Source: Chiloscyllium plagiosum | Taxonomy: Eukaryota | Direction: 5' to 3' | Assembly: GCF_004010195.1 (NCBI RefSeq) | Contig: NC_057719.1 | Coordinates: 7,781,974 to 7,845,973 of the forward strand | Length of the DNA stretch: 64,000 bases | In this document: positions 3,618 to 28,952 of the stretch, one piece after another | How the letters are laid out: the number at the start of each line of letters is the position of its first letter | Position numbering within the stretch: position 1 is the first letter of the stretch | Notes under the pieces: model-generated | Database searches by the model: none | What the model was told of the DNA's origin: nothing | What the model saw: only the letters and a program-made list of their open reading frames with translations | Made by a program: the position numbers and the translations under genes

Positions 3618-4754
3618 TAATGCTCTGGAGTCACAGGTTCAAATCCCAATTTGGCAGCTGGTGAAATTTAATTAGGGATTTGAAAGCTAGTCTCAGTTTC
3701 ATGGTCGCCATTAGTATTATTGATTGATATCTACTATCTTGCCTTATCTGGCCTACATGTGACTCCAAACCTACTCTAATGTGGTTGAAGAAGGGCTTAT
3801 GCCCGAAACATCGATTCTCCTGTTCCCTGGATGCTGCCTGACCTGCTGCGCTTTTCCAGCAACACATTTTCAGCTCTGATCTCCAGGATCTGCAGACCTC
3901 ACTTTCTCCTCATAGATACCTACAAGCCAGGCTTGAGCTAAGGTTCTAAAACCTTTAGCAGAGATGCAGCGCCAGCTCTTACCCCGAAGACCTCTCTCAG
4001 ACTACTCCCCTTATTCTTGCAAACAAGTTGTCTTTATACAGAAATTAGTGTTGAAATTATAAAAACGACAAATGTCAGATAAGCAACAATAAAATAGCAA
4101 AAGTTTGCAGAGGAAGAGAAACTCATTGATAGGTCTGTGTATACCTGCCTAACTAAGCTACATGCACGTCAAAATGGGAAACCTTGATCCAGCCAGGCCC
4201 CAACTGGCTGATTGTTTTGGCTAGAGAACCTTCCCTTTTAACAGTACATCAATACGATGGACTAGAATAAACTATGTGGAAAGGTCATGAGGTAACCTCG
4301 TTTAGCTAACATGGCCAGTATCATTGTCCTATGTAATGGCTCTTTCTTTTAAAATCATCTTAGATTCCCAGAATGTAAATTACATTTATAACCTTCCTGG
4401 ATCTCGAGCTCCAGGGAACAGTGTACAAGCATTCATGACAAGCCAGTGTTCACCCATATCAGACCATAAAGGGTTAATCTTTCCACCGGCTTACATCCTC
4501 TCTTTCTGTCTCTCTCCCTCTATGTCCCTTAAACCCTTCAGTCAGTGAATGTAATTTACAGAAGAATGTTTTCTCTCACTCAGACATGAATATCTTCCAA
4601 CTTTCAGCCTTTGTTTTTTCCTAGCTGAAAAATGTGTTGCTGGAAAAGCGCAGCAGGTTAGGCAGCATCCAAGGAGCAGGAGAATTGATGTTTCGGGCAT
4701 AAGCCCTTCCAGCAACACACTCTTCCTAGCCTCTAAGGGTAATGAGACATTCAC

Positions 4755-5049
4755 AGATCAGATTCCCTACAGGATGGAAACAGGCCCTTTGGCCCAACAA
4801 GTCCACACTGACACTCTGAAGAGTAACCTACCCATTCCCCTACCCCTCACACTATGGGCAAGTTAGCATGGCCAATTCGCCTGACCTGCACATCTTTGGA
4901 TTGTGGGAGGAAACCGGAGCACCTGGAGGAAACCCACGCGACACTGGGAGAATGTGCAAACTCAACACAGACAGTTGGGAGGTGGGAATCGAACCCGGGT
5001 CTCTGGCGCTGTGAGACAGCAGTGCTAACCACTGAGCCACCGTGCCGCC
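4755..5049 (-). mobile_element. tRNA-derived SINE (HE1-like)
   Basis: Head ggcggcacggtggctcagtggttagcac...ggttcgattcc with A/B boxes; CR1-like tail; absent from the other LTR. Confidence 0.88.
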
Positions 5050-5442
5050 ATCCTAGATGCAGCCAAGCTGAGGGAGTTGAGCTTCATAAATTCAAATCTG
5101 ATCAGTGTGGTATACATGAAAATGTGTCAAGATTGTTCTATTACATGCATATTTCACTCAGCTTATTAAATTACCAGTTATTTTCCTATTGAGTATGAAT
5201 TTTGTTCAGAATCTTTGGTATAAACCAGCAATTTAGTTGCCTGAAACCCTGCTGTGAAATATGCATGCCTCTAGCCTCCGGCATGAGAAAGAAGTACTTC
5301 CACACATTCTACAGGTGAACAAATGTTATGTATAATGTATAACGCCACCTTCTTTACACTGATCCATTGACACTAAAGACAGTTGTCCCCAGTTCTTCTG
5401 AACAAGCACTTTCCCGCATTCTCTGCAGCAAATACGTCACAT

Positions 5443-5895
5443 AGAGTCATAGAGATGTACAGCATGGAAACAGACCCTTTGGTCCAACCTGTCCATGCCA
5501 ACCAGATATCCCAACCCAATCTAGTCCTACCTGCCAGCACCTGGCCCATATCCCTCCAAACCCTTCCTATTCATGTACCCATCCAAATGCCTCTTAAATG
5601 TTGCAATTGTACCAGCCTCCACCACATCCTTTGGCAGCTCATTCCATACACGTACCACCCTCTGGGTGAAAAAATTGCCCCTTAGGTCTCTTTTATATCT
5701 TTCCCCTCTCACCCTAAACCTATGCCCTCTAGTTCTGGACTCCCTGACCCCAGGGAAAAGACTTTGCCTATTTATCCTATCCATGCCACTCATAATTTTG
5801 TAAACCTCTATAAGGTCACCCCTCAGTCTCCGCTCCAGGGAAAACAGTCCCAGCCTGTTCAGTCTCTCCCTGTCGCTCAGATCCTCCAACCCTGG
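5443..5895 (-). mobile_element. CR1 3' end inserted in the LTR
   Basis: RLGLFSLE/RGNFFTQRVV motifs, (ctctatga) tail, short cacat duplication at the flanks. Confidence 0.9.
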
Positions 5896-5921
5896 CACAT
5901 CTAAGGCTACACGCTTTCTCA

Positions 5922-5933: not shown

Positions 5934-6108
5934 ATCATTTCATGGTAAGAATACAACGTATACAAGTCCAATTAGTCCATTCAGTCCATTTGTATTTTCA
6001 ACAAGTCGAGTGCCACTTCTGGTGAGTCGTCGTCCGGAGAGCAGAGTCGGAAAGATATCTGATTTCGGCATAAAAGTTCCAACATGGAGGTACAGGAGTG
6101 AACAAAAG

Positions 6109-8520
6109 TTAATTAGCAAGATTCTTCTTTGGCTTAGGTGAAAAGCATTGCACGGTCCACTCCATACATAAGCAGCTGACAATGTATGTTCGTAGGATGA
6201 GACCAAGGATTATCAGTGCATCCCGCATGAACCACCCGCACAGTGACTATAGCCAGCAGGTAGACTCCATCCACATGAGGTAAAAACAATGACTGCAGAT
6301 GCTGGAAACCAGATTCTGGATTAGTGGTGCTGGAAGAGCACAGCAGTTCAGGCAGCATCCAAGGAGCAGCGAAATCGACGTTTCGGGCAAAAGCCCTTCA
6401 TGAGACAGTTGCTCTATGCTACTTTCTCCCCACCCCCACCCTCCTCTAGCTTATCTCTCCACCCTTCAGGCTCTCTGGCTTTATTGCTGATGAAGGGCTT
6501 TTGCCCGAAATGTCGATTTTCGCTGCTCCTTGGATGCTGCCTGAACTGCTGTGCTCTTCCAGCACCACTAATCCAGAATCCATCCACATGAATCAGACGA
6601 TGGTGGGGCAGGTATCTTCCCTGCGTCTTGACTCATTTGTTGATGACATTTGTGTCATATACAATGTCTTTAGAGAAGTCATCTATGTAGGTGCAACATT
6701 GTGGGCCAATGATAGTTCAAGTGCCTCCTTCTTTAACAAGAAGGAAATCTGGCACTAATTGATTCTGAAGCGTTGTCATTCAGGTTTCCTGTAGTTCTTT
6801 GTTCATTAGTTTCAATGCATGGGTGGTTGAGTTGGCTAGTTTCTCGATGTTGTATGTAAGGTCACCGATCTGATCTAGGGTCACCTCAACACCCAAGCCA
6901 GGAATAAGGCCTCCCATCAACCTAGACCACCAGGCTTGTTGATGGAAGAAGTCAGCAAGTCTCGTTTTGTTCTTCCTCTAATTTTTGTCCCATAGCAATT
7001 CACATATTGGTGGGCTTTCCATTTGTTATCTACCTTAGGGATTTTATAGTGGAGGGTAAAAAGTGGTAAGGTGTGCACTAAAGCACAATGTCCATTCCAG
7101 TCTTTGGGTAAATATGGGTTGGTTTTGTTTTTGCATAGCCCATGAAGGCTAAATGGAGTTCCGAGGGTGCACTTCTGTGAGTGAATGACGAGTCCACTCA
7201 GAGTGAGGGCTGAATCTTGGAGAGTAGGAGTACGACCAGTGTCTTTTATAACATTTTTACACAGTATTTGCTTCACTTGCCCCATGTTGTGCATATCGAA
7301 AGTTCTTTCAATGCACCATTCTACCAGTAGAACAATGTTAACATTGAATCCTGTAGGTTTGTTAGTGCACTTCACACAGTGATACACTTCTTCTACCGAA
7401 TGGGTTTTGTCATTGCAGGTGAGGGGTTGCATAGGTGGCTGAGTCTTATTCATACATTGTATATCAGAATGATGGAAGAGTGAGCGGCCAATGCATGGAT
7501 CAGGATGTTTAGCTTGAATAAAGAAACCATTCGCAATGGAAGGGAGATTAGGGTGCATAGTAATTTTCATCTTTCTTCACCTTTCCAGCTTGTCTTGTTA
7601 ACTACAGTAGTTACTGATTGCAGAAGCCATGTAAAGGTATTTCTGCCAGTAGCGGTAGGTCAGATAGGAGAAGGTTCCGTTGATAAGGTATTGGTTGACA
7701 GTCTCAGAGCCAAAGATGCTTTAAGGTTCTGCGATTTCAATACTATGTGTTCAATACCACAATTTGTATGGTTCATTTTGGGAGGGGAACAGGTAAACAT
7801 TTCAAAGTAACAGTTTTCGGCTGATGGAGTGGATGATGTTATGGGATCGTGTCATCTCATGACAACTGGCATAGATGTGTTGTAAGGGTGACACTAATGT
7901 TGAAAATGATGTTCGGATGTACAATGTGAATAGCTTAAATGAATTTCAGCTGGAAAGCTACATTCATAGCTTTCAACAGTATTGGTACAAGTTTCATGGT
8001 GCTGACAAATCCTATCTTCAGGGGGAGCAGTGGGGAAGATAATACATCAATCGTCATTGGAATATCCGGAAGGACCAATGCCATTCGCACTGTAGCCGTG
8101 ATTACACTGACATTCTACACCTAAATTGTTGGTTTTGTTTATGCAAGTGGCATCGGGGTGACAAGTGGGACACGTTCGTGTTCTCACGCAATGAAGGGTA
8201 GTAGTCAGAATCACAATAGGGGTAGTAAAACAGGTAGTGGTGAGCAGAGTGAGTGTTGTTAATTTCTGCTGTTTTGTGGTCATCGGGGTTGTCTTGTCAT
8301 GAGTGGTAGTAACAATGTCAGTGATAGTGATGGTGGTAGGTGATGATGTGGTCGTTGGTGCAGGGGCAAGAATCATTGGGCATCTAATGGTCTCATTTTT
8401 TCAGCATGTGGCATCCTCTGAAGTATTGTTTAGCTTGATAAAAGTAATTCCTGTGACATTGTTATACCACCTTAGTCACTTCTCCATTTGATTCATTAGC
8501 ATTGACACAAATTTGGTTCA
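6109..8520 (-). pseudogene. env: ERV env (gamma-type TM); SU region with Thr-rich and EGF-like modules; stops and frameshifts
   Basis: YLPKDWNGHCAL motif; furin site RTKR (~6962-6973); ISD-like LQNQLVPDFLLVKEGG followed by *TIIGPQCC (CX6CC with the first Cys turned to stop); hydrophobic ALIILGLIL anchor; stop at 6109-6111. Confidence 0.88.
6279..6578. mobile_element. Palindromic Penelope-terminal-repeat mini-element inserted in env TM
   Basis: Inverted arms; 13-bp TSD tccatccacatga at 6266-6278 and 6579-6591. Confidence 0.85.
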
Positions 8521-8570
8521 TGCAATCACGTTGGAGGTTTAGCCCATCGGAGATATTACAGATTGGCAGA

Positions 8571-9270
8571 TTACATCTGGGCTAAACCTCCAACGTGATC
8601 AGGGAGTCCTAAGGGCTTTCCATATACTAGTTCAGCCGCCAAGAATCTTGACTTTTTCTGGATCATGGTTCTCATATTAAGAAAGGCAATTGGGAGTACT
8701 TGCAGCCAATTAAGGCCCATTTCCTCGACCAACTTGCTTAGCTGGCCTTTTAAAGTACCATTGGCTCTTTCTACAATTCCCATTGCTTGGGGACGGTTGG
8801 CAGAATGGGATCTCTGATTCATATTCAGACTCTTACATAGTTTGTTGTTTATCTCTGCACAGAAGTGGGGGCCATTATTGGAAGAGACCGTTATTGGTAT
8901 TCCAAACCTGGGTATGATTTCCCTTAGTAGAATTTTACAGGTAGGTTTTGCTGTGCAGTCTACGGGGATAAGCTTTAATCCATCTACTAAATACAACAAT
9001 AATCACTAAGCAATACTTGTAATAATGGCATCTAGGTAATTCTGTAAAATCTAACTGGATAGTATCAAAAATTGCACTTGGCAAGGGAGTTTCACCTGAT
9101 GGACACTTTACTCCTTTCCCGGGATTATGCTTTTGACAAATTAGGCAATTTGCAGCTGCTTGTTTTGTTTTTTCTTGCGGGTGGGGATTCCACCAAGTTT
9201 AGAGAATTCTGTCCATCATTCCCTCCTTACCTACATGCGTACACATATGAACATAATCAACTAGAATAGG
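8571..9270 (-). pseudogene. pol: ERV integrase remnant, C-terminus missing
   Basis: HHCC (HMCTH...CLIC), IQLDFTELP, REIIPRFGIP, VSSNNGPHF (catalytic D mutated), GIVERANGTLK. Confidence 0.92.
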
Positions 9271-9350
9271 CAAAAGCGAATCAGGCAGACATGTCTGCCC
9301 TACCTGCGTAACCCAAAGCTCAGTATAACTATTTATATAACAATCGTGGT

Positions 9351-9800
9351 TCATCCATCATGGTTGTTTTTTGTCATCAGAAGCGCCCCCTTATGGGCCT
9401 GTATTTGTGCTAGGTTAGGCATGGTCGGGGTATCAGAAGAGGAAAAAGGAGAGTCTTCCTTTGGTTTCCTGTTTGTCATTTGAGTGACCGTATCTCTTTG
9501 TTCAAAAGCTGCCTTCTTAGCAGCCGTGTCAGTAGCATGGTTGCCTTTCGTGACATCAGGAGCATCGGAGGAGTGGGTAGAACATTTGATAATTGCCAAT
9601 TGAGAGGGAAGATGAATAGCGTGGAGCAGGTTAGCAACGTAGGCAGCATTGAGGATAGGGTTTCTGATGAGGTAAGAGAGCCATGCTGTTGTCAGAGTTG
9701 ACCAAAATCATGGGCACATCCAAAGGCATAGCGGGAGTCAGTTTGGATATTAGCTGACTTCCCTTTAGCAAGTGAGAACAACGGTGAGAACAACAAACTC
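9351..9800 (-). pseudogene. pol: ERV RNase H remnant
   Basis: ANIQTDSRYAFGCAHDFGQLW and AIIKCSTH...GNHATDTAAKKAA motifs typical of class I ERV RNase H. Confidence 0.9.
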
Positions 9801-13916: not shown

Positions 13917-14821
13917 ATATATCAGATATAGACAAGATAGATCAAATGAATCCTTAGAGTATAAAGGTAGTAGGAGTATACTTAAGAGGGAAAACAGGAG
14001 GGCAAAAAGAGGACATGAGATAGCTTTGACAAATAGAATTAAGGAGAAACCAAAGGGATTTTACAAATGCATTAGGACAAAAAGGGTAACGAGGGAGAGA
14101 ATAGGGCCCCTCAAAGATTAGCAAGGTGGCCTTTGTGTGGAACCGCAGGAGATGGGGGAGATACTAAACGAGTATTTTGCATCAGTGTTTACTGTGGAGA
14201 AGGACATGGAAGGTATAGAATTTAGGGAAATAGATGGTGACATCTTGAAAAATGTCCATGTTACAGAGGAGGAAGTGCTGGAAGTCTTGAAATGCATAAA
14301 AGTGGATATATCCCAGGACCTGATCAGGTGTACCCTAGAACTCTGTGGGAAGCTAGGGAAGTGATTGCTGGGCCTCTTGCTGAGATACTTGTATCATCGA
14401 TAGTCACAGGTGAGGTGCTGGAAGACTGGAGATTGGCTAACGTGGTGCCACTATTTAAGGAAGGTGGTAAGGACAAGCCAGGGAACTATAGACCAGTGAG
14501 CCTGACGTCAATGGTGGGCAAGTTGTTGGAGGGAATCCTGAGGGACAGGATGTACATGTATTTGGAAAGGCAAGGACTGATTAGGGAAAATCACCATGGC
14601 TTCGTGTGTGGGAAATCATGCCTCACAAACTTGATTGATTTTGTGGAGCAATAACAAACGGGATCGAAGAGGGCAGAGTGGTGGACATGATCCATATGGA
14701 CTTCAGTAAGGCGTTTGACAAGGATCCCCATGGGAGACTGGTTAGCAAGGTTAGATCTCATGGAATACAAGGAGAACTAGCCACTTGGATACAGAACTGG
14801 CTCAAAGGTAGAAGACAGAGG

Positions 14822-15120
14822 AGATCTCTAGTGAGTAGAGGGATACATAACCTATCAGTAACATCAAAGCGAAAAGAGAGCAAGATACAATTTTTCCACA
14901 CCATTGTGAGAGGTACAGCGTATGCGAAACAATTAGAGGAGCCATCAAATCCTTGTAGGGCTTCAACATCGCCTGAGATCTGAAAGTCAAAGGCATTTAC
15001 AAGATTAGTGGGAAGTGATGACACAGTGGCTCTCATGTCAACCATGAATTCATGATCATTAACATTAAGGGTCAGCATAGGTTCATCCTCAGGGCTAGTG
15101 GTAACCATGGGAAGATTCAA
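14822..15120 (-). pseudogene. pro: ERV aspartic protease remnant
   Basis: EPMLTLNVN..FMVDMRATVS (degenerate DTGA) and PLLTRDLL (degenerate LLGRDLL). Confidence 0.85.
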
Positions 15121-17840
15121 GGGAGGATGGTGACCTACATCAGGGAGTCCGGTTCGGAAATGGTTCTGTGCAGTAAAAGGGGCAAACTGCTGAGGTCCCG
15201 GGGTGGGGGTGGAATCGGAAGATCGCTGACTTCTTCCATTCTGGTGATCAACAGGGGGCTGCCTTGGGAAAGGGCAGTTCTTGGACCAATGTTCTGGCTG
15301 ATTACAGATGAAGCAAATGTCTGCTCATTTGGGGGCTCTTGGGGGTGGAAGAGGTGGGGAGGAATAGTAAGAGTATGTATAGCGACTAAGGGACATTATC
15401 GACTGTTGGGGAGGGTACATAGGAGGACCTCAAGGTCCATAGGAATGCTGTTGCTATACGGTACCAGCCCTATTGTCTTGCCATACTGGGTGACAGTATG
15501 AGGGTTCCATTCGATAGTCTCGCTGGGAAGGTCTGTTTGGAGTTCTGGTTTTGGGTCTAGCTCCTGCAGTTTGGGTAAATTTGATCTTGACCTTGATTGT
15601 TGAGGCCTTATTGTCGGGGTCCTTTAGTTCCCAGAAGTAACATCCTTCTCAGCGGAATTGTTCAACATCGGCACCTTGACAGTGCCTATTATAGGTTTTA
15701 ATAGCTTTCTGTACTTGTCAGGAAGGACAGTCAGACAAAAGCATTAAATTGGGTACTGACCGTCACCAGAGTAAGCACCATAGCAGTCCTTAAAGCAGAC
15801 GAGGAAATGCTCAGCTACTTTGCTTGAGGGAGGTTTACATGTTGATTGCATGGCGCACTGCTTAACAGAGGGAGGTAATAATCCAATCTGGTTGATTAGG
15901 TTCACCTGGGTGCATAAGCACGAGTTGGGTATGATTATTACATTGTCAAAGTTCTAAGAACTTAGTCCATTTTTCAGGGGAAAGAGTGCATTCTATGAGA
16001 TTAAGTAAGTCTTGGAGGCCGCATTGTAAATGGTCCTAGTCCTATTAATATAATTAATGAATCCTTCGAGATTCTTTCCATAATCTGGAGCCTTATTGAT
16101 GATGCTAAAGAGTTCATGAGGCTTCCAAGGTTGATAAAGGTTAACAAATGGATTTTGTCCCTGATTCTAGGCAAGTGGGTTAGGGACTCTTCTTGTTGGG
16201 AAATTTACCTTGACCATTTCATATCAGGGTGAGTGTGAGGCCTAACATTAAGGTCCCTAAACTTTGATTGTAATTCATCAATGTCTGCAGGATAATGGGC
16301 TGAGAAGTAGCAAATGGAGTTTAATTCAGATAAATGTGAGGTGCTGCATTTTGGGAAAGCAAATCTTAACAGGACTTTACACTTAATGGTAAGGTCCTAG
16401 GGAGTGTTGCTGAACAAGGAGATCTTGGAGTGCAGATTCATAGCTCCTTGAAAGTGGAGTCACAGGTAGATAAGTTAGTGAAGTATGCTTTCCTTTATTG
16501 ATCAGAGTATTGAGTACAGGAGTTGAGAGGTCTTGTTGCGGCTGTACAGGACATTGGTTAGGCCACTGTTGGAATATTGCATGCAATTCTGGTCTCCTTC
16601 CTATTGGCAAGATGTTATGAACCTTGAACGGGTTCAGAAAAGATCTACAAGGATATTGCCAGGGTTGGAGGATTTGAGCTATAAGGAGAGGCTGAACAGG
16701 CTGGGGCTGTTTTCCCTGGAGCGTTGGAGGCTGAGGGGTGACTTTATAGAGGTTTACAAAACTATGAGGGGCATGGATAGGATTATTGGCAAAGTCTTTT
16801 CCCTGGGGTGGGGGAGTCCAGAGCTAGAGGGTATAGGTTTCGGGTGAGAGGGGAAAGATATAAAAAAGACCTAAGGAGCAACTTTTTCAAGCAGAGGGTG
16901 GTACGTGTGTGGAATGAGCTGCCAGAGGAAGTGATGCCTGGTACAATTGCAATATTTAAAAGGCATTTGGATGGGTATAAGAATAGGAAGGGTTTGGAGG
17001 GAGATGGGCCGGATGTTGGCAGGTGGCACTAGATTGGGTTGGGATATCTGGTCAGCATGGACGAGTTGGACCGAAGGGTCTATTTCCATGCCATACATCT
17101 CTGTGACTCTGTGACTCTATGACTTATTTGTGGTGGGGCAGTGGCATTCCAAGGTCCCTTCGCAGGGTTTTCTTCATGTCTGAATCTGAGTTGATTCCTA
17201 GTGTGGATGGCAATGGGATTATGGTAACCATGATCATCCGAATTCTTCTATGCTGGACAGGAGAGGCAACTGAGATGAAAAGGGTGTGGGCCTTGGCATG
17301 TTCGTCCTTGGAATAGGAAGGGGGGGGGTTAAGGTGCTTTTGTTTCATGTTTGCTTTGGTTGGGGAACCTGAAGAGGGGGGGTGGACAAATTAAAAGGTC
17401 TCCTCCTCCGAATCTGATTCAAATTCCTCACTTGCAGGGGAATCATTGTCCTCTAATAATGGGTCTTTGGGATAGGTGGGGTATACGGAATTGTCCTTGT
17501 TGTCCGTCTGGTCCTGCACGTTGCAGCTACAGTCTGATTGTTATTTATTGGTTTCCTTTTCCTTTGGGGTCCTTGAAATTTCAGATTAGGTTGTAGTTCT
17601 CTTCCTTCTTTATGTTTTGCTATTTGTTCTCTTGCGAACTCCAATTCTGTTTCTAAATCATGTGCTTCACATTTGCGTTTTAGTTCTGTCCAATCTAATT
17701 CAAATCCTTCCTCAGTTAATGGACTGATACCCCTTTTAATACAGTTTTGTCTCCACGATGATTGCATGGATTTTTCCCATTTTTCTTTAGGAACATTTTT
17801 CCACACTGATATGGCTTCTTTCTTTTTATCCCAATTCAAT
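15121..17840 (-). pseudogene. gag: ERV gag remnant, interrupted by a CR1 at ~16290-17124
   Basis: Zinc knuckle CFICNQPEHWSKNC (15274-15315); YQPWKPHEL capsid-like motif; Pro-rich segments; position between the 5' LTR and pro. Confidence 0.85.
16290..17124 (+). mobile_element. 5'-truncated CR1 LINE inserted in gag
   Basis: DKCEVLHFG, LYRTLVRPLLEYC, NFFKQRVV; (ctctgtga)n tail. Confidence 0.92.
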
Positions 17841-17844
17841 TCAA

Positions 17845-18985
17845 TGTTACGCTATAACATAGACACCTACAAACCAGACTTGAGTTAAGTTTCTAAAACC
17901 TTTAGCAGAGTAGCAGCGCCAGCTCTTACCCCAAAGAGCGCTCTCAAACTACTCCCCTTATTGTTGCAAATACGTTATCTCTACACAGAAATTGGTATTA
18001 AAATTACAAAAACACCACATGTCCTTAATCAGATAGGCAACAATACAATGGTAAAAGTTTGCAAAGGAAGAGAAACTCATTGACAGGTCTGAATATGCTT
18101 GACTAACTAAGCTACACACACACATCAAAGTGGGAACCCATGATCCAGCCAGGCCCCAAATGGCTGATTGCTATGGCTAAATAACCTTCCCTTTAGTCCC
18201 TCATTATGAGGTACCGTTAGTCTAAACTATGTGGAAAGCTCATGAGGTAATCTTGCTCAGCTAAGATGTCCAGTATCATTGTCCTACAAAATGACTTTTT
18301 CTTTTAAAATCATCTTAGGTTTCCAGAACGCAAATTAAATTCATAACCTTCCCTGATCTCGAGCTCCAGGGAACAACCTACAAACATTCAATTCATGACA
18401 AGCCAGTGTGTTCACTTAAATCAGACCATTAATGGTTAATCTTTCCATCAGCTTCCATCGTGTCTCTCTCTCTCTCTCTCTCTCTCTGTCCCTTGAACCC
18501 TTCAGTCAGTGAATGTAATTTACCATTTTCTCTTTCACTCATGCATGAACATCTTCCAACTTTCAGCCTGTAATGGTACTGAGACATTCACGTCCCAGAG
18601 CAGTCAAGATGAGGGAGCTGAGCTTCATAAATTCAAATCTGATCAGTGCGGTATACATGAAAATGTATCAGGATTGTTATATTACGTACATATTCCACTC
18701 AGCTTATTAAATTACAAGTTATTTTCCTATTGAGTTTGAGTGTTATTAAGAGTCTTTGATAAAAACCAGCAATTTAGTTATTCAACTAAATGTGAAATGT
18801 GTGTGCCTCCAGTGTCCAGCGTGAGAAGGAAGTATTACCACACATTCTACAAGTGAACAAATGTTATCACCTTATTTACACTGATCCATTGACACCAAGA
18901 GCAGATGTCCCCAACTCTTCTGAACAAGCACGTTGCTGCGTTCTCTGCAACAAATGTGTCACATTTAAGGCTACACGCTTTCTCA
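17845..18985 (-). repeat. ERV 5' LTR (~1.14 kb; left boundary tentative)
   Basis: Direct repeat of 3911-5921 without its insertions; TG start on minus at 18985; candidate CA end at 17845. Confidence 0.88.
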
Positions 18986-27989: not shown

Positions 27990-28668
27990 CTGGGGCTTGA
28001 ATCTCGATTAAACACAGAGGACTTGAACCTCAGTTGAACCCTGGGGACTCGAACTTCAATTAAACCTACCCAGGGGACTCAAACCCCAATACGACGCGGA
28101 GGACTTGAACCTCAAATGAACCCATGCGACTTAGACCTCAATTAAACGCACCCAGGGGACTCAAATCCCAATACAATGTGGAGAACTTGAAACTCAAGTA
28201 AACCCAGGGGACTCGGACCCCAGTTCTGCGTGGAGGACTCAAACCTCAATTAAACCCAGGGGACTTAGACCCCAGTACTGCGTGGAGGACTCAAACCTCA
28301 ATTAAACCCAGGGGCCTCGGACCCCAATACTGCGTGGAGGACTTGAACCTCAATTAAACCCAGGGGACTCTGACCCCAATACTGCGTGGAAGACTCGAAC
28401 CTCAGTTAAACCCAGGGGACTCAAACCCCAATACAGCGTGGAGGACTCAAACCTCAATTAAACCCACCCGGGGACTCGAACCTCAATTAAACTCACCCAG
28501 AGGACTCGAGCCTCAATTAAACTCACCCAGAGGACCCGAACCCCAATACTGCGTGGAAGACTCGAACCTCAATTAAACTCGCCCAGAGGACTCAAACCCC
28601 AATACAGCACGGAGAACGTGAACCTCAATTAAACCCAGGGGTCTCAAACCCCAATACAGCGTGGAGAA
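27990..28668. repeat. Minisatellite, ~52 bp unit built from two related ~26 bp subunits
   Basis: Repeated aaacccaggggactc(g/a)aaccccaatactgcgtggaggactc(a/g)aacctcaatt. Confidence 0.9.
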
Positions 28669-28952
28669 CCCACACAAACAGCAAGCAAATGGTCTTTCTC
28701 TAGTGCGAACTCATTGGTGTCTCTGCAGGTTGGATGACTGAGTGAATCACTTCCTACAGTCAGAGCAGATGAACAGCTTTTCCCCAGTGTGATTGCGTTG
28801 GTGAATTTAATGTTGGGATAGATAAAGACATCCCTTCTCACAATCTCCACATTTCCACAAGCTCTCTGGCATTGCACTGGCATTTGGACATTTCAGATGA
28901 ATCTTGACAGACTCGTCCAGACACAGATAATCCTGTTTCTCCCCAGTGTGAA
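28669..28952 (-). pseudogene. C2H2 zinc-finger gene remnant
   Basis: Hand translation HTGEK...[50 protein letters not shown]; in-frame stops. Confidence 0.85.

Follow-up and report, generated by a model that had tools for sequence, protein, structure and literature searches.

An Envelope Gene Carrying EGF-Type Modules and a Mucin-Like Stalk in a Decayed Endogenous Retrovirus of the Shark Chiloscyllium plagiosum

Does the envelope (Env) of a shark retrovirus carry EGF modules of its own and, if so, from where could they have come and what might they do? This question is raised by a stretch of 64,000 nucleotides of the Chiloscyllium plagiosum genome (contig NC_057719.1, hereafter the window), in which a decayed endogenous retrovirus (ERV) lies on the minus strand with an EGF cassette in its env gene. 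The first-pass annotation of this DNA had described a Thr-rich stretch followed by two EGF-like modules, interrupted by a single stop (8047-8049) and each keeping five of the six EGF cysteines, and all of these are indeed found in one minus-strand frame where it had placed them. To this we add two features that it did not contain, an upstream Cys-rich module (E0, 8581-8380) and a Cys domain of ~85 residues after module 2.

The env gene stands in an LTR-gag-pol-env-LTR context, as is proper to a retroviral Env (Table 1). The two LTRs (17845-18963 and 3911-5441) align at 81-82% with gaps and 14.4% mismatch and, because repeat insertions flank them, neither a primer-binding site nor a target-site duplication is readable at the provirus ends. 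Two 88%-identical LINE-like 3' fragments (window 5440-5897 and 16657-17113) sit in opposite orientations inside the provirus, beside each LTR side, and a tandem array with a 26/52-nt period occupies window 27992-28675. The copy in the window has lost ~390 nt, including the end of the integrase and the env signal peptide, and its env is further damaged by several stops and frameshifts. A contig of the same organism from another study is identical letter for letter over 7854-8171, and these lesions are therefore real and not assembly errors. Regarding affiliation, the closest named relatives of the integrase and of SU are found in sharks, a chimaera, amphibians and teleosts; those of the RNase H-integrase part are shark and amphibian ERV proteins, and MLVIN_C is present.

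Table 1. Features of the provirus in the window, listed from its 5' to its 3' end.
Feature	Position	Strand	Remarks
5' LTR	17845..18963	-	~1.1 kb; pairs with 3911-5441
gag/pro remnant, zinc knuckle	14761..15324	-	Pfam zf-CCHC above cut-off
pol remnant (RNase H and integrase)	8597..9772	-	frameshifted; integrase end deleted
~390-nt deletion junction	8582..8597	-	from blastn against other copies; bridged by an independent contig
env module E0	8380..8581	-	eight Cys, rich in N-glycan sites; 17-nt deletion near 8464 in the window copy
Thr/Ser-rich mucin-like stalk	8173..8379	-	~70 residues; 40% Ser+Thr in copy L002
EGF module E1, EGF_3 type	8062..8172	-	Pfam above cut-off; score reached by 0/1000 shuffles
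EGF module E2, calcium-binding type signature	7921..8058	-	signature columns; 0/1000 shuffles; EGF_CA below cut-off
In-frame stop inside E2	8047-8049	-	private to the window copy
Post-EGF four-Cys domain	7663..7920	-	~85 residues, between E2 and SU core; no Pfam family
SU core	6962..7660	-	homologous to fish gamma-type Envs; ends in furin-type site at ~6973-6962
TM	6076..6961	-	ISD, membrane anchor and CX6CC in sister copies; interrupted by a repeat insertion
3' LTR	3911..5441	-	repeat inserted

The EGF nature of the two modules was examined with several profiles. The read-through translation of 7897-8400 (-), in which the stop was written as X, reaches 32.8 bits with Pfam EGF_3, above the cut-off of 28.5 (E 8e-8), and the HMM check that the first-pass annotation had proposed thus spoke for EGF; the matches of EGF_CA, EGF and hEGF to module 2 stay under the Pfam cut-offs. 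EGF_3 also passes its cut-off in three of six other EGF-region frames scanned. A profile built on 29 host cbEGF modules of the same genome scored E1 and E2 of the window each above all of 1000 shuffles. Across the family, E1 has the spacing of an EGF module and keeps all six cysteines in 7 of 18 copies, while E2 does so in 8 of 19 and displays, in column counts over 22-23 copies, an acidic N-terminal motif and C-x-N-x4-Y-x-C. Among the 21-23 copies that have a codon at the position, each of the 12 EGF cysteine columns holds Cys in 70-91% (67-95% for all 24 cysteine columns), and the Atlas features of the pair pointed with high confidence to EGF/cbEGF, as generic clusters. E1 and E2 are, as far as their sequence tells, EGF-type modules. 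For E0, the score with the host-EGF profile was reached by 133 of 1000 shuffles, which is not significant, and the sole Pfam lead was EGF_STAB1-2 (E 0.05-0.08). Two AlphaFold2 models (pLDDT 28 and 37) were unusable for fold. In the PDB sequence search, the EGF pair matched only fibrillin-1 (E 0.14) and the full query had no match; protein database searches gave no match for the 357-aa frame of copy L002, nor for the EGF pair among longer proteins.

The first-pass annotation had reasoned that a host retrocopy received after integration would be lacking from other members of the family. The cassette was instead found throughout: at the DNA level, 33 candidates yielded 34 matches. Of these, 25 span >200 nt of it (at 78-100%) and represent 24 loci, which is a lower bound. 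Integrase lies within the 1.5-kb flank in 18 of these 24 loci, and the sequence continues into SU in 22. Moreover, the same annotation had envisaged that a family consensus might place the cassette out of frame with SU; judged by the spacing over the whole family, one frame runs from the signal peptide through the Cys module, the stalk, the EGF and the cbEGF into SU, the majority-occupied columns of the 24-locus alignment being a multiple of three in six of six segments. Frameshifts are nearly all private, the sole one common to as many as three copies lying in a C run, and a shared frameshift initially suspected between E0 and E1 dissolved into scattered private indels. Although no unbroken env was seen among the copies examined, long pieces of the frame survive: copy L002 is stop-free over 357 aa (signal peptide, eight-Cys E0, 70-residue stalk, E1, E2 and four-Cys domain), in L013 (368 aa) and L022 (340 aa) no stop interrupts the frame that crosses the EGFs and enters the SU core, and L003 keeps the frame from SU over the cleavage site into TM. 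Ten N-glycosylation sequons are present in at least half of the copies. The cassette also occurs, at 90-99%, in contigs of two other organisms, and the family therefore predates their split or infected all three. One RNA run (X21), sampled to about 2%, yielded 0 matching reads. Near-duplicate copies (L019/L021, at G000:C8 81.24 and 81.26 Mb, and L074/L076/L085/L088) suggest that proviruses, once integrated, were amplified segmentally or in a satellite-like manner.

Searched as protein, the EGF pair returned 87 matches, more than 50 of which cover just the last third of the query. The fetched matches represent a form that is 540 nt shorter and keeps the frame, E0 being joined by its first half to the second half of E2; this lineage thus carries one hybrid module and is without one entire EGF and without the calcium-binding half of the other EGF. 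One of its members, L071, reads from the signal-peptide region to TM in one frame interrupted by stops only, and the post-EGF four-Cys domain is conserved in both lineages. A tree was built from 55 copies with their inserted repeats masked. All 20 long copies fall into one star-like clade (support 0.985) and all 32 short copies into another (0.986), the mean distances being 0.149 (long) and 0.142 (short) within and 0.198 between lineages; L012, L063 and L065 were dropped, and L016, L020, L023, L025 and several short-type loci were left aside. In a third lineage (L079, L081 and L110), at a DNA distance of 0.41, the same SU core is preceded by a hydrophobic stretch at the N-terminus, a Ser/Thr stretch and a single module with the spacing 7-5-8-1-10. 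Compared with E2 of L002, this module outscores all of 1000 shuffles, and by the host profile it is only weakly EGF-like (score reached by 5 and 60 of 1000 shuffles). Its presence, together with the Ser/Thr stretch, indicates that capture is older than the long lineage for at least one module. Three further matches (L102, L106 and L107) have a short stretch like the second half of E1 and no other env marker; they were set aside as probably due to chance.

While the tree by itself leaves gain versus loss undecided, we infer that a deletion between similarly placed sites in E0 and E2 turned the long form into the short one, because in five of six copies checked the two modules agree in 10-13 of 18 nt at the junction, the E2 of the long form has a complete calcium-binding N-terminus, and the outgroup spacing (5) is that of long E2 and not of the short hybrid (4). 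The single-hybrid-module lineage has spread at least as widely as the long one, and the full pair is therefore dispensable.

The first-pass annotation had also proposed to look for selection among copies, and here the outcome was divided. Once CpG columns are left aside, the comparison of the long with the short lineage gives a pN/pS of 0.25 for the module halves that both have (6 synonymous and 6 non-synonymous changes, p=0.014) and of 0.33 for the whole shared N-terminal region (p=0.001). Within the family, selection was not detected in the block found only in the long form (E0 C-half, stalk, E1 and E2 N-half), where the ratio is 0.59 for shared variants vs 0.75 for singletons (p=0.64). These ratios argue that the module halves common to both lineages have been under protein-level purifying selection in a replicating virus. 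Taken with the single clade of all 20 long copies and the occurrence in other organisms' DNA, this between-lineage selection also indicates that the cassette was acquired by the replicating virus and not after integration.

Regarding the rest of the protein, a profile search of 1.84 billion proteins with SU found 11 entries, i.e., ten fish-type Envs, to which the SU core is homologous (E 2e-23 to 1e-4), and one teleost multi-EGF protein. None of these ten Envs has a Pfam EGF match. In the shark Env the SU core starts just past the post-EGF domain, ~320 residues after the signal peptide, whereas in P0009/P0019 the same core stands directly behind the signal peptide with no EGF extension; P0004/P0005 have unrelated N-termini and then an extra basic site. 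The homologous core without extension in these relatives makes the EGF arm an N-terminal add-on to a self-sufficient core. Inside the core lies a long Cys-rich region of its own. The canonical CXXC is not kept at the start of the core, where the CXXC of P0009/P0014 has a counterpart for its second Cys alone, as is the case in alpha-like Envs; a different C-x-x-C lies ~25 residues downstream. A furin-type SU/TM site is present (R-T-K-R at ~6973-6962 in the window frame), and no R-x-K/R-R site occurs between the EGFs and the SU core in the four natural frames checked; the arm would therefore stay on SU. TM is of the gamma type, with ISD, CX6CC and membrane anchor in the natural frames of L002, L003 and L069; Pfam HR1-HR2/TLV_coat remain below cut-off, and profile matches are to syncytin and GP2 structures.

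Other members of this Env clade show N-terminal peculiarities of their own. The extra basic, furin-like site before the SU core in P0004, P0005 and P0014 suggests a cleaved N-terminal domain. In Astyanax mexicanus ('syncytin-A-like' P0007/P0017/P0018), residues ~35-125 resemble an Ig V-set domain (Pfam 22-23 bits vs a cut-off of 26 for P0007/P0017, and a weak PDB match to the Otk Ig region), and this N-terminus possibly represents a second host-domain capture in the same clade. P0012 has a ~120-residue insertion between SU core and TM (residues ~230-350), Ig-like by eye, with no Pfam match.

Where the modules came from was sought in the same genome. The EGF fold and the cbEGF signature are animal features, and the cassette block is intronless, which would fit capture from a spliced mRNA; an animal gene is the likely source of the modules. 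The capture of a host EGF cassette into Env, as proposed at first pass, hence stands for the virus-borne (24 loci, one clade), EGF-type and in-frame character of the modules and falls short on the donor, which was not found. Matches in the host genome reached E 0.18 at best, and the scores of 57 sampled host EGF modules form a continuum with no clear donor among them; the SUSD1-like pair suggested earlier retains a weak Atlas lead, of fairly high score, for the whole frame. A multi-EGF gene gave the top E1 scores, yet at a generic level, and was rejected as donor; this host gene (L099:5746-7947 and L100:2426-5122, G000:C9 ~28.62 Mb) has large exons (734 and 899 open codons) with tandem cbEGF repeats. 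At G000:C19 ~5.67-5.99 Mb, one strand carries a cluster of ~90 single EGF_3 exons, nearly identical to one another, which form a very long EGF-repeat gene or a gene array.

We favour, with rather better than even confidence, the reading that the window holds a decayed ERV with a one-frame env (signal peptide, Cys module, stalk, EGF pair, Cys domain, SU and TM) whose N-terminal part is likely a host-captured accessory arm serving attachment or shielding. The modules would have entered env by recombination with a spliced multi-EGF mRNA. Each SU on the virion would then bear a glycosylated arm outside the fusion core, in which E0 is followed by an extended stalk bearing O-glycans, an EGF pair stiffened by calcium and a linker domain. 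The EGF pair may bind a cell-surface or matrix partner, as a second receptor or a matrix component, and the arm may screen the core from antibodies, while the SU core would bind the entry receptor and trigger TM, fusion not being triggered by the arm. This architecture of env was in place in the 24-locus clade before its copies spread, and the short lineage would have arisen later by the E0/E2 deletion. Attachment or shielding is the most likely function of the arm; the parts compared of bioRxiv 2024.03.17.585361 propose the same accessory attachment role for newly captured domains.

The EGF modules could also be the primary receptor-binding domain (RBD), taking the place of the gammaretroviral N-terminal RBD, with changes in module number having altered receptor use. 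Their position is that of the gamma-type RBD (PMC9967133, passages compared), at least one module is kept in all three lineages of the genome, and the shared module halves have been under purifying selection; against this, the SU core with its internal Cys-rich region stands alone in relatives, and the short lineage tolerates the loss of a whole EGF and of the calcium-binding half of the other. We consider this role unlikely. A still less probable proposal, which we would call doubtful at best, is signalling mimicry, virion-bound or shed EGFs engaging Notch-pathway, adhesion or growth-factor receptors and modulating immunity or proliferation instead of entry. A Thr stands just before the third Cys, four residues after the second, in 19 of 22 copies for each module, a position that we take to fit the O-fucosylation consensus. 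The cysteine spacing and the missing Gly-x-Arg-Cys before the last Cys are at odds with ErbB ligands, the arm has no second cleavage site for release in the frames checked, and no donor was found; capture of a host gene, OGFr, is nevertheless described for fish retroviruses in the parts compared of bioRxiv 2021.11.23.469661. Finally, a host retrocopy or exon block inserted into one provirus after integration and passively copied, or a chance or convergent Cys pattern, would suit the near-neutral within-family variation of the long-only block and the lack of an intact copy among those seen, but is very improbable and in our view largely refuted by a block in frame at both ends with no poly(A) or duplication seen at its edges, viral-type N-sequons, homologous modules in two other lineages, between-lineage selection and the want of a close host match.

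The reading as a captured accessory arm has one close precedent. The first host-derived RBD reported, in the parts compared of bioRxiv 2024.03.17.585361, is the IgV domain of a SIRP, taken up by an alpha-like Env. As in Env-Dbi/Env-Per ('RBD-C SIRP-like'), described there, a host-type extracellular domain is fused in frame at the SU N-terminus of a gamma-type Env without canonical CXXC, acquired by a replicating virus and with a proposed accessory attachment role. Env-Dbi/Env-Per have one IgV domain with an identified mammalian donor, whereas the shark Env has EGF/cbEGF modules and a mucin-like stalk, their number varies by lineage and the donor was not found. The fish gamma-type ERV Envs (P0004 from Hemiscyllium ocellatum, P0005 from Callorhinchus milii, P0007 from Astyanax, and P0009) share the homologous SU core and TM but have absent, unrelated or Ig-like N-termini and no Pfam EGF. 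With filovirus GP and the gammaretroviral RBD and proline-rich region, the likeness lies in TM homology and in a class I fusion protein whose stalk is flexible or heavily O-glycosylated; in filoviruses the mucin-like domain extends GP1 at its C-terminus (bioRxiv 2021.11.05.467493, parts compared), and the literature passages compared report no EGF modules in filovirus GP or gammaretroviral Env. Our search of openly accessible papers and preprints found no EGF-bearing retroviral Env. 'EGF' does not occur in PMC8672886, PMC9967133, bioRxiv 2021.11.23.469661, 2023.10.07.561363, 2021.11.05.467493 and 2024.03.17.585361, and its matches in PMC12813294 are to EGFP. Two cases of EGF in a viral setting are of another kind. 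Engineered EGF-Env fusions, in which EGF is displayed on a retroviral Env, are laboratory constructs, and the EGF-like growth factors of poxviruses, ErbB ligands with an EGF fold, are not part of a fusion protein.

The origin of retroviral receptor-binding domains is an open question, for which the one clear published host capture that we found is a mammalian IgV domain. The EGF/cbEGF and stalk arm of the shark Env would be a second host-domain capture, structurally unrelated to IgV, and three lineages differing in module number would make both capture and remodelling traceable in viral fossils. It also suggests that annotation of decayed ERVs overlooks such captures. A broader view, which we hold tentatively and think more probably wrong than right, is that the fish Env clade is a modular display platform tuned by recombination, with repeated capture of host domains (EGF/cbEGF and mucin stalk in sharks, Ig-like in teleosts), and that the EGFs are receptor-binding or immune-mimicry domains forming a new class of host-derived RBD. 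Together with the Ig-like lead in teleosts, the shark Env suggests that domain capture has been recurrent in the diversification of fish Envs.
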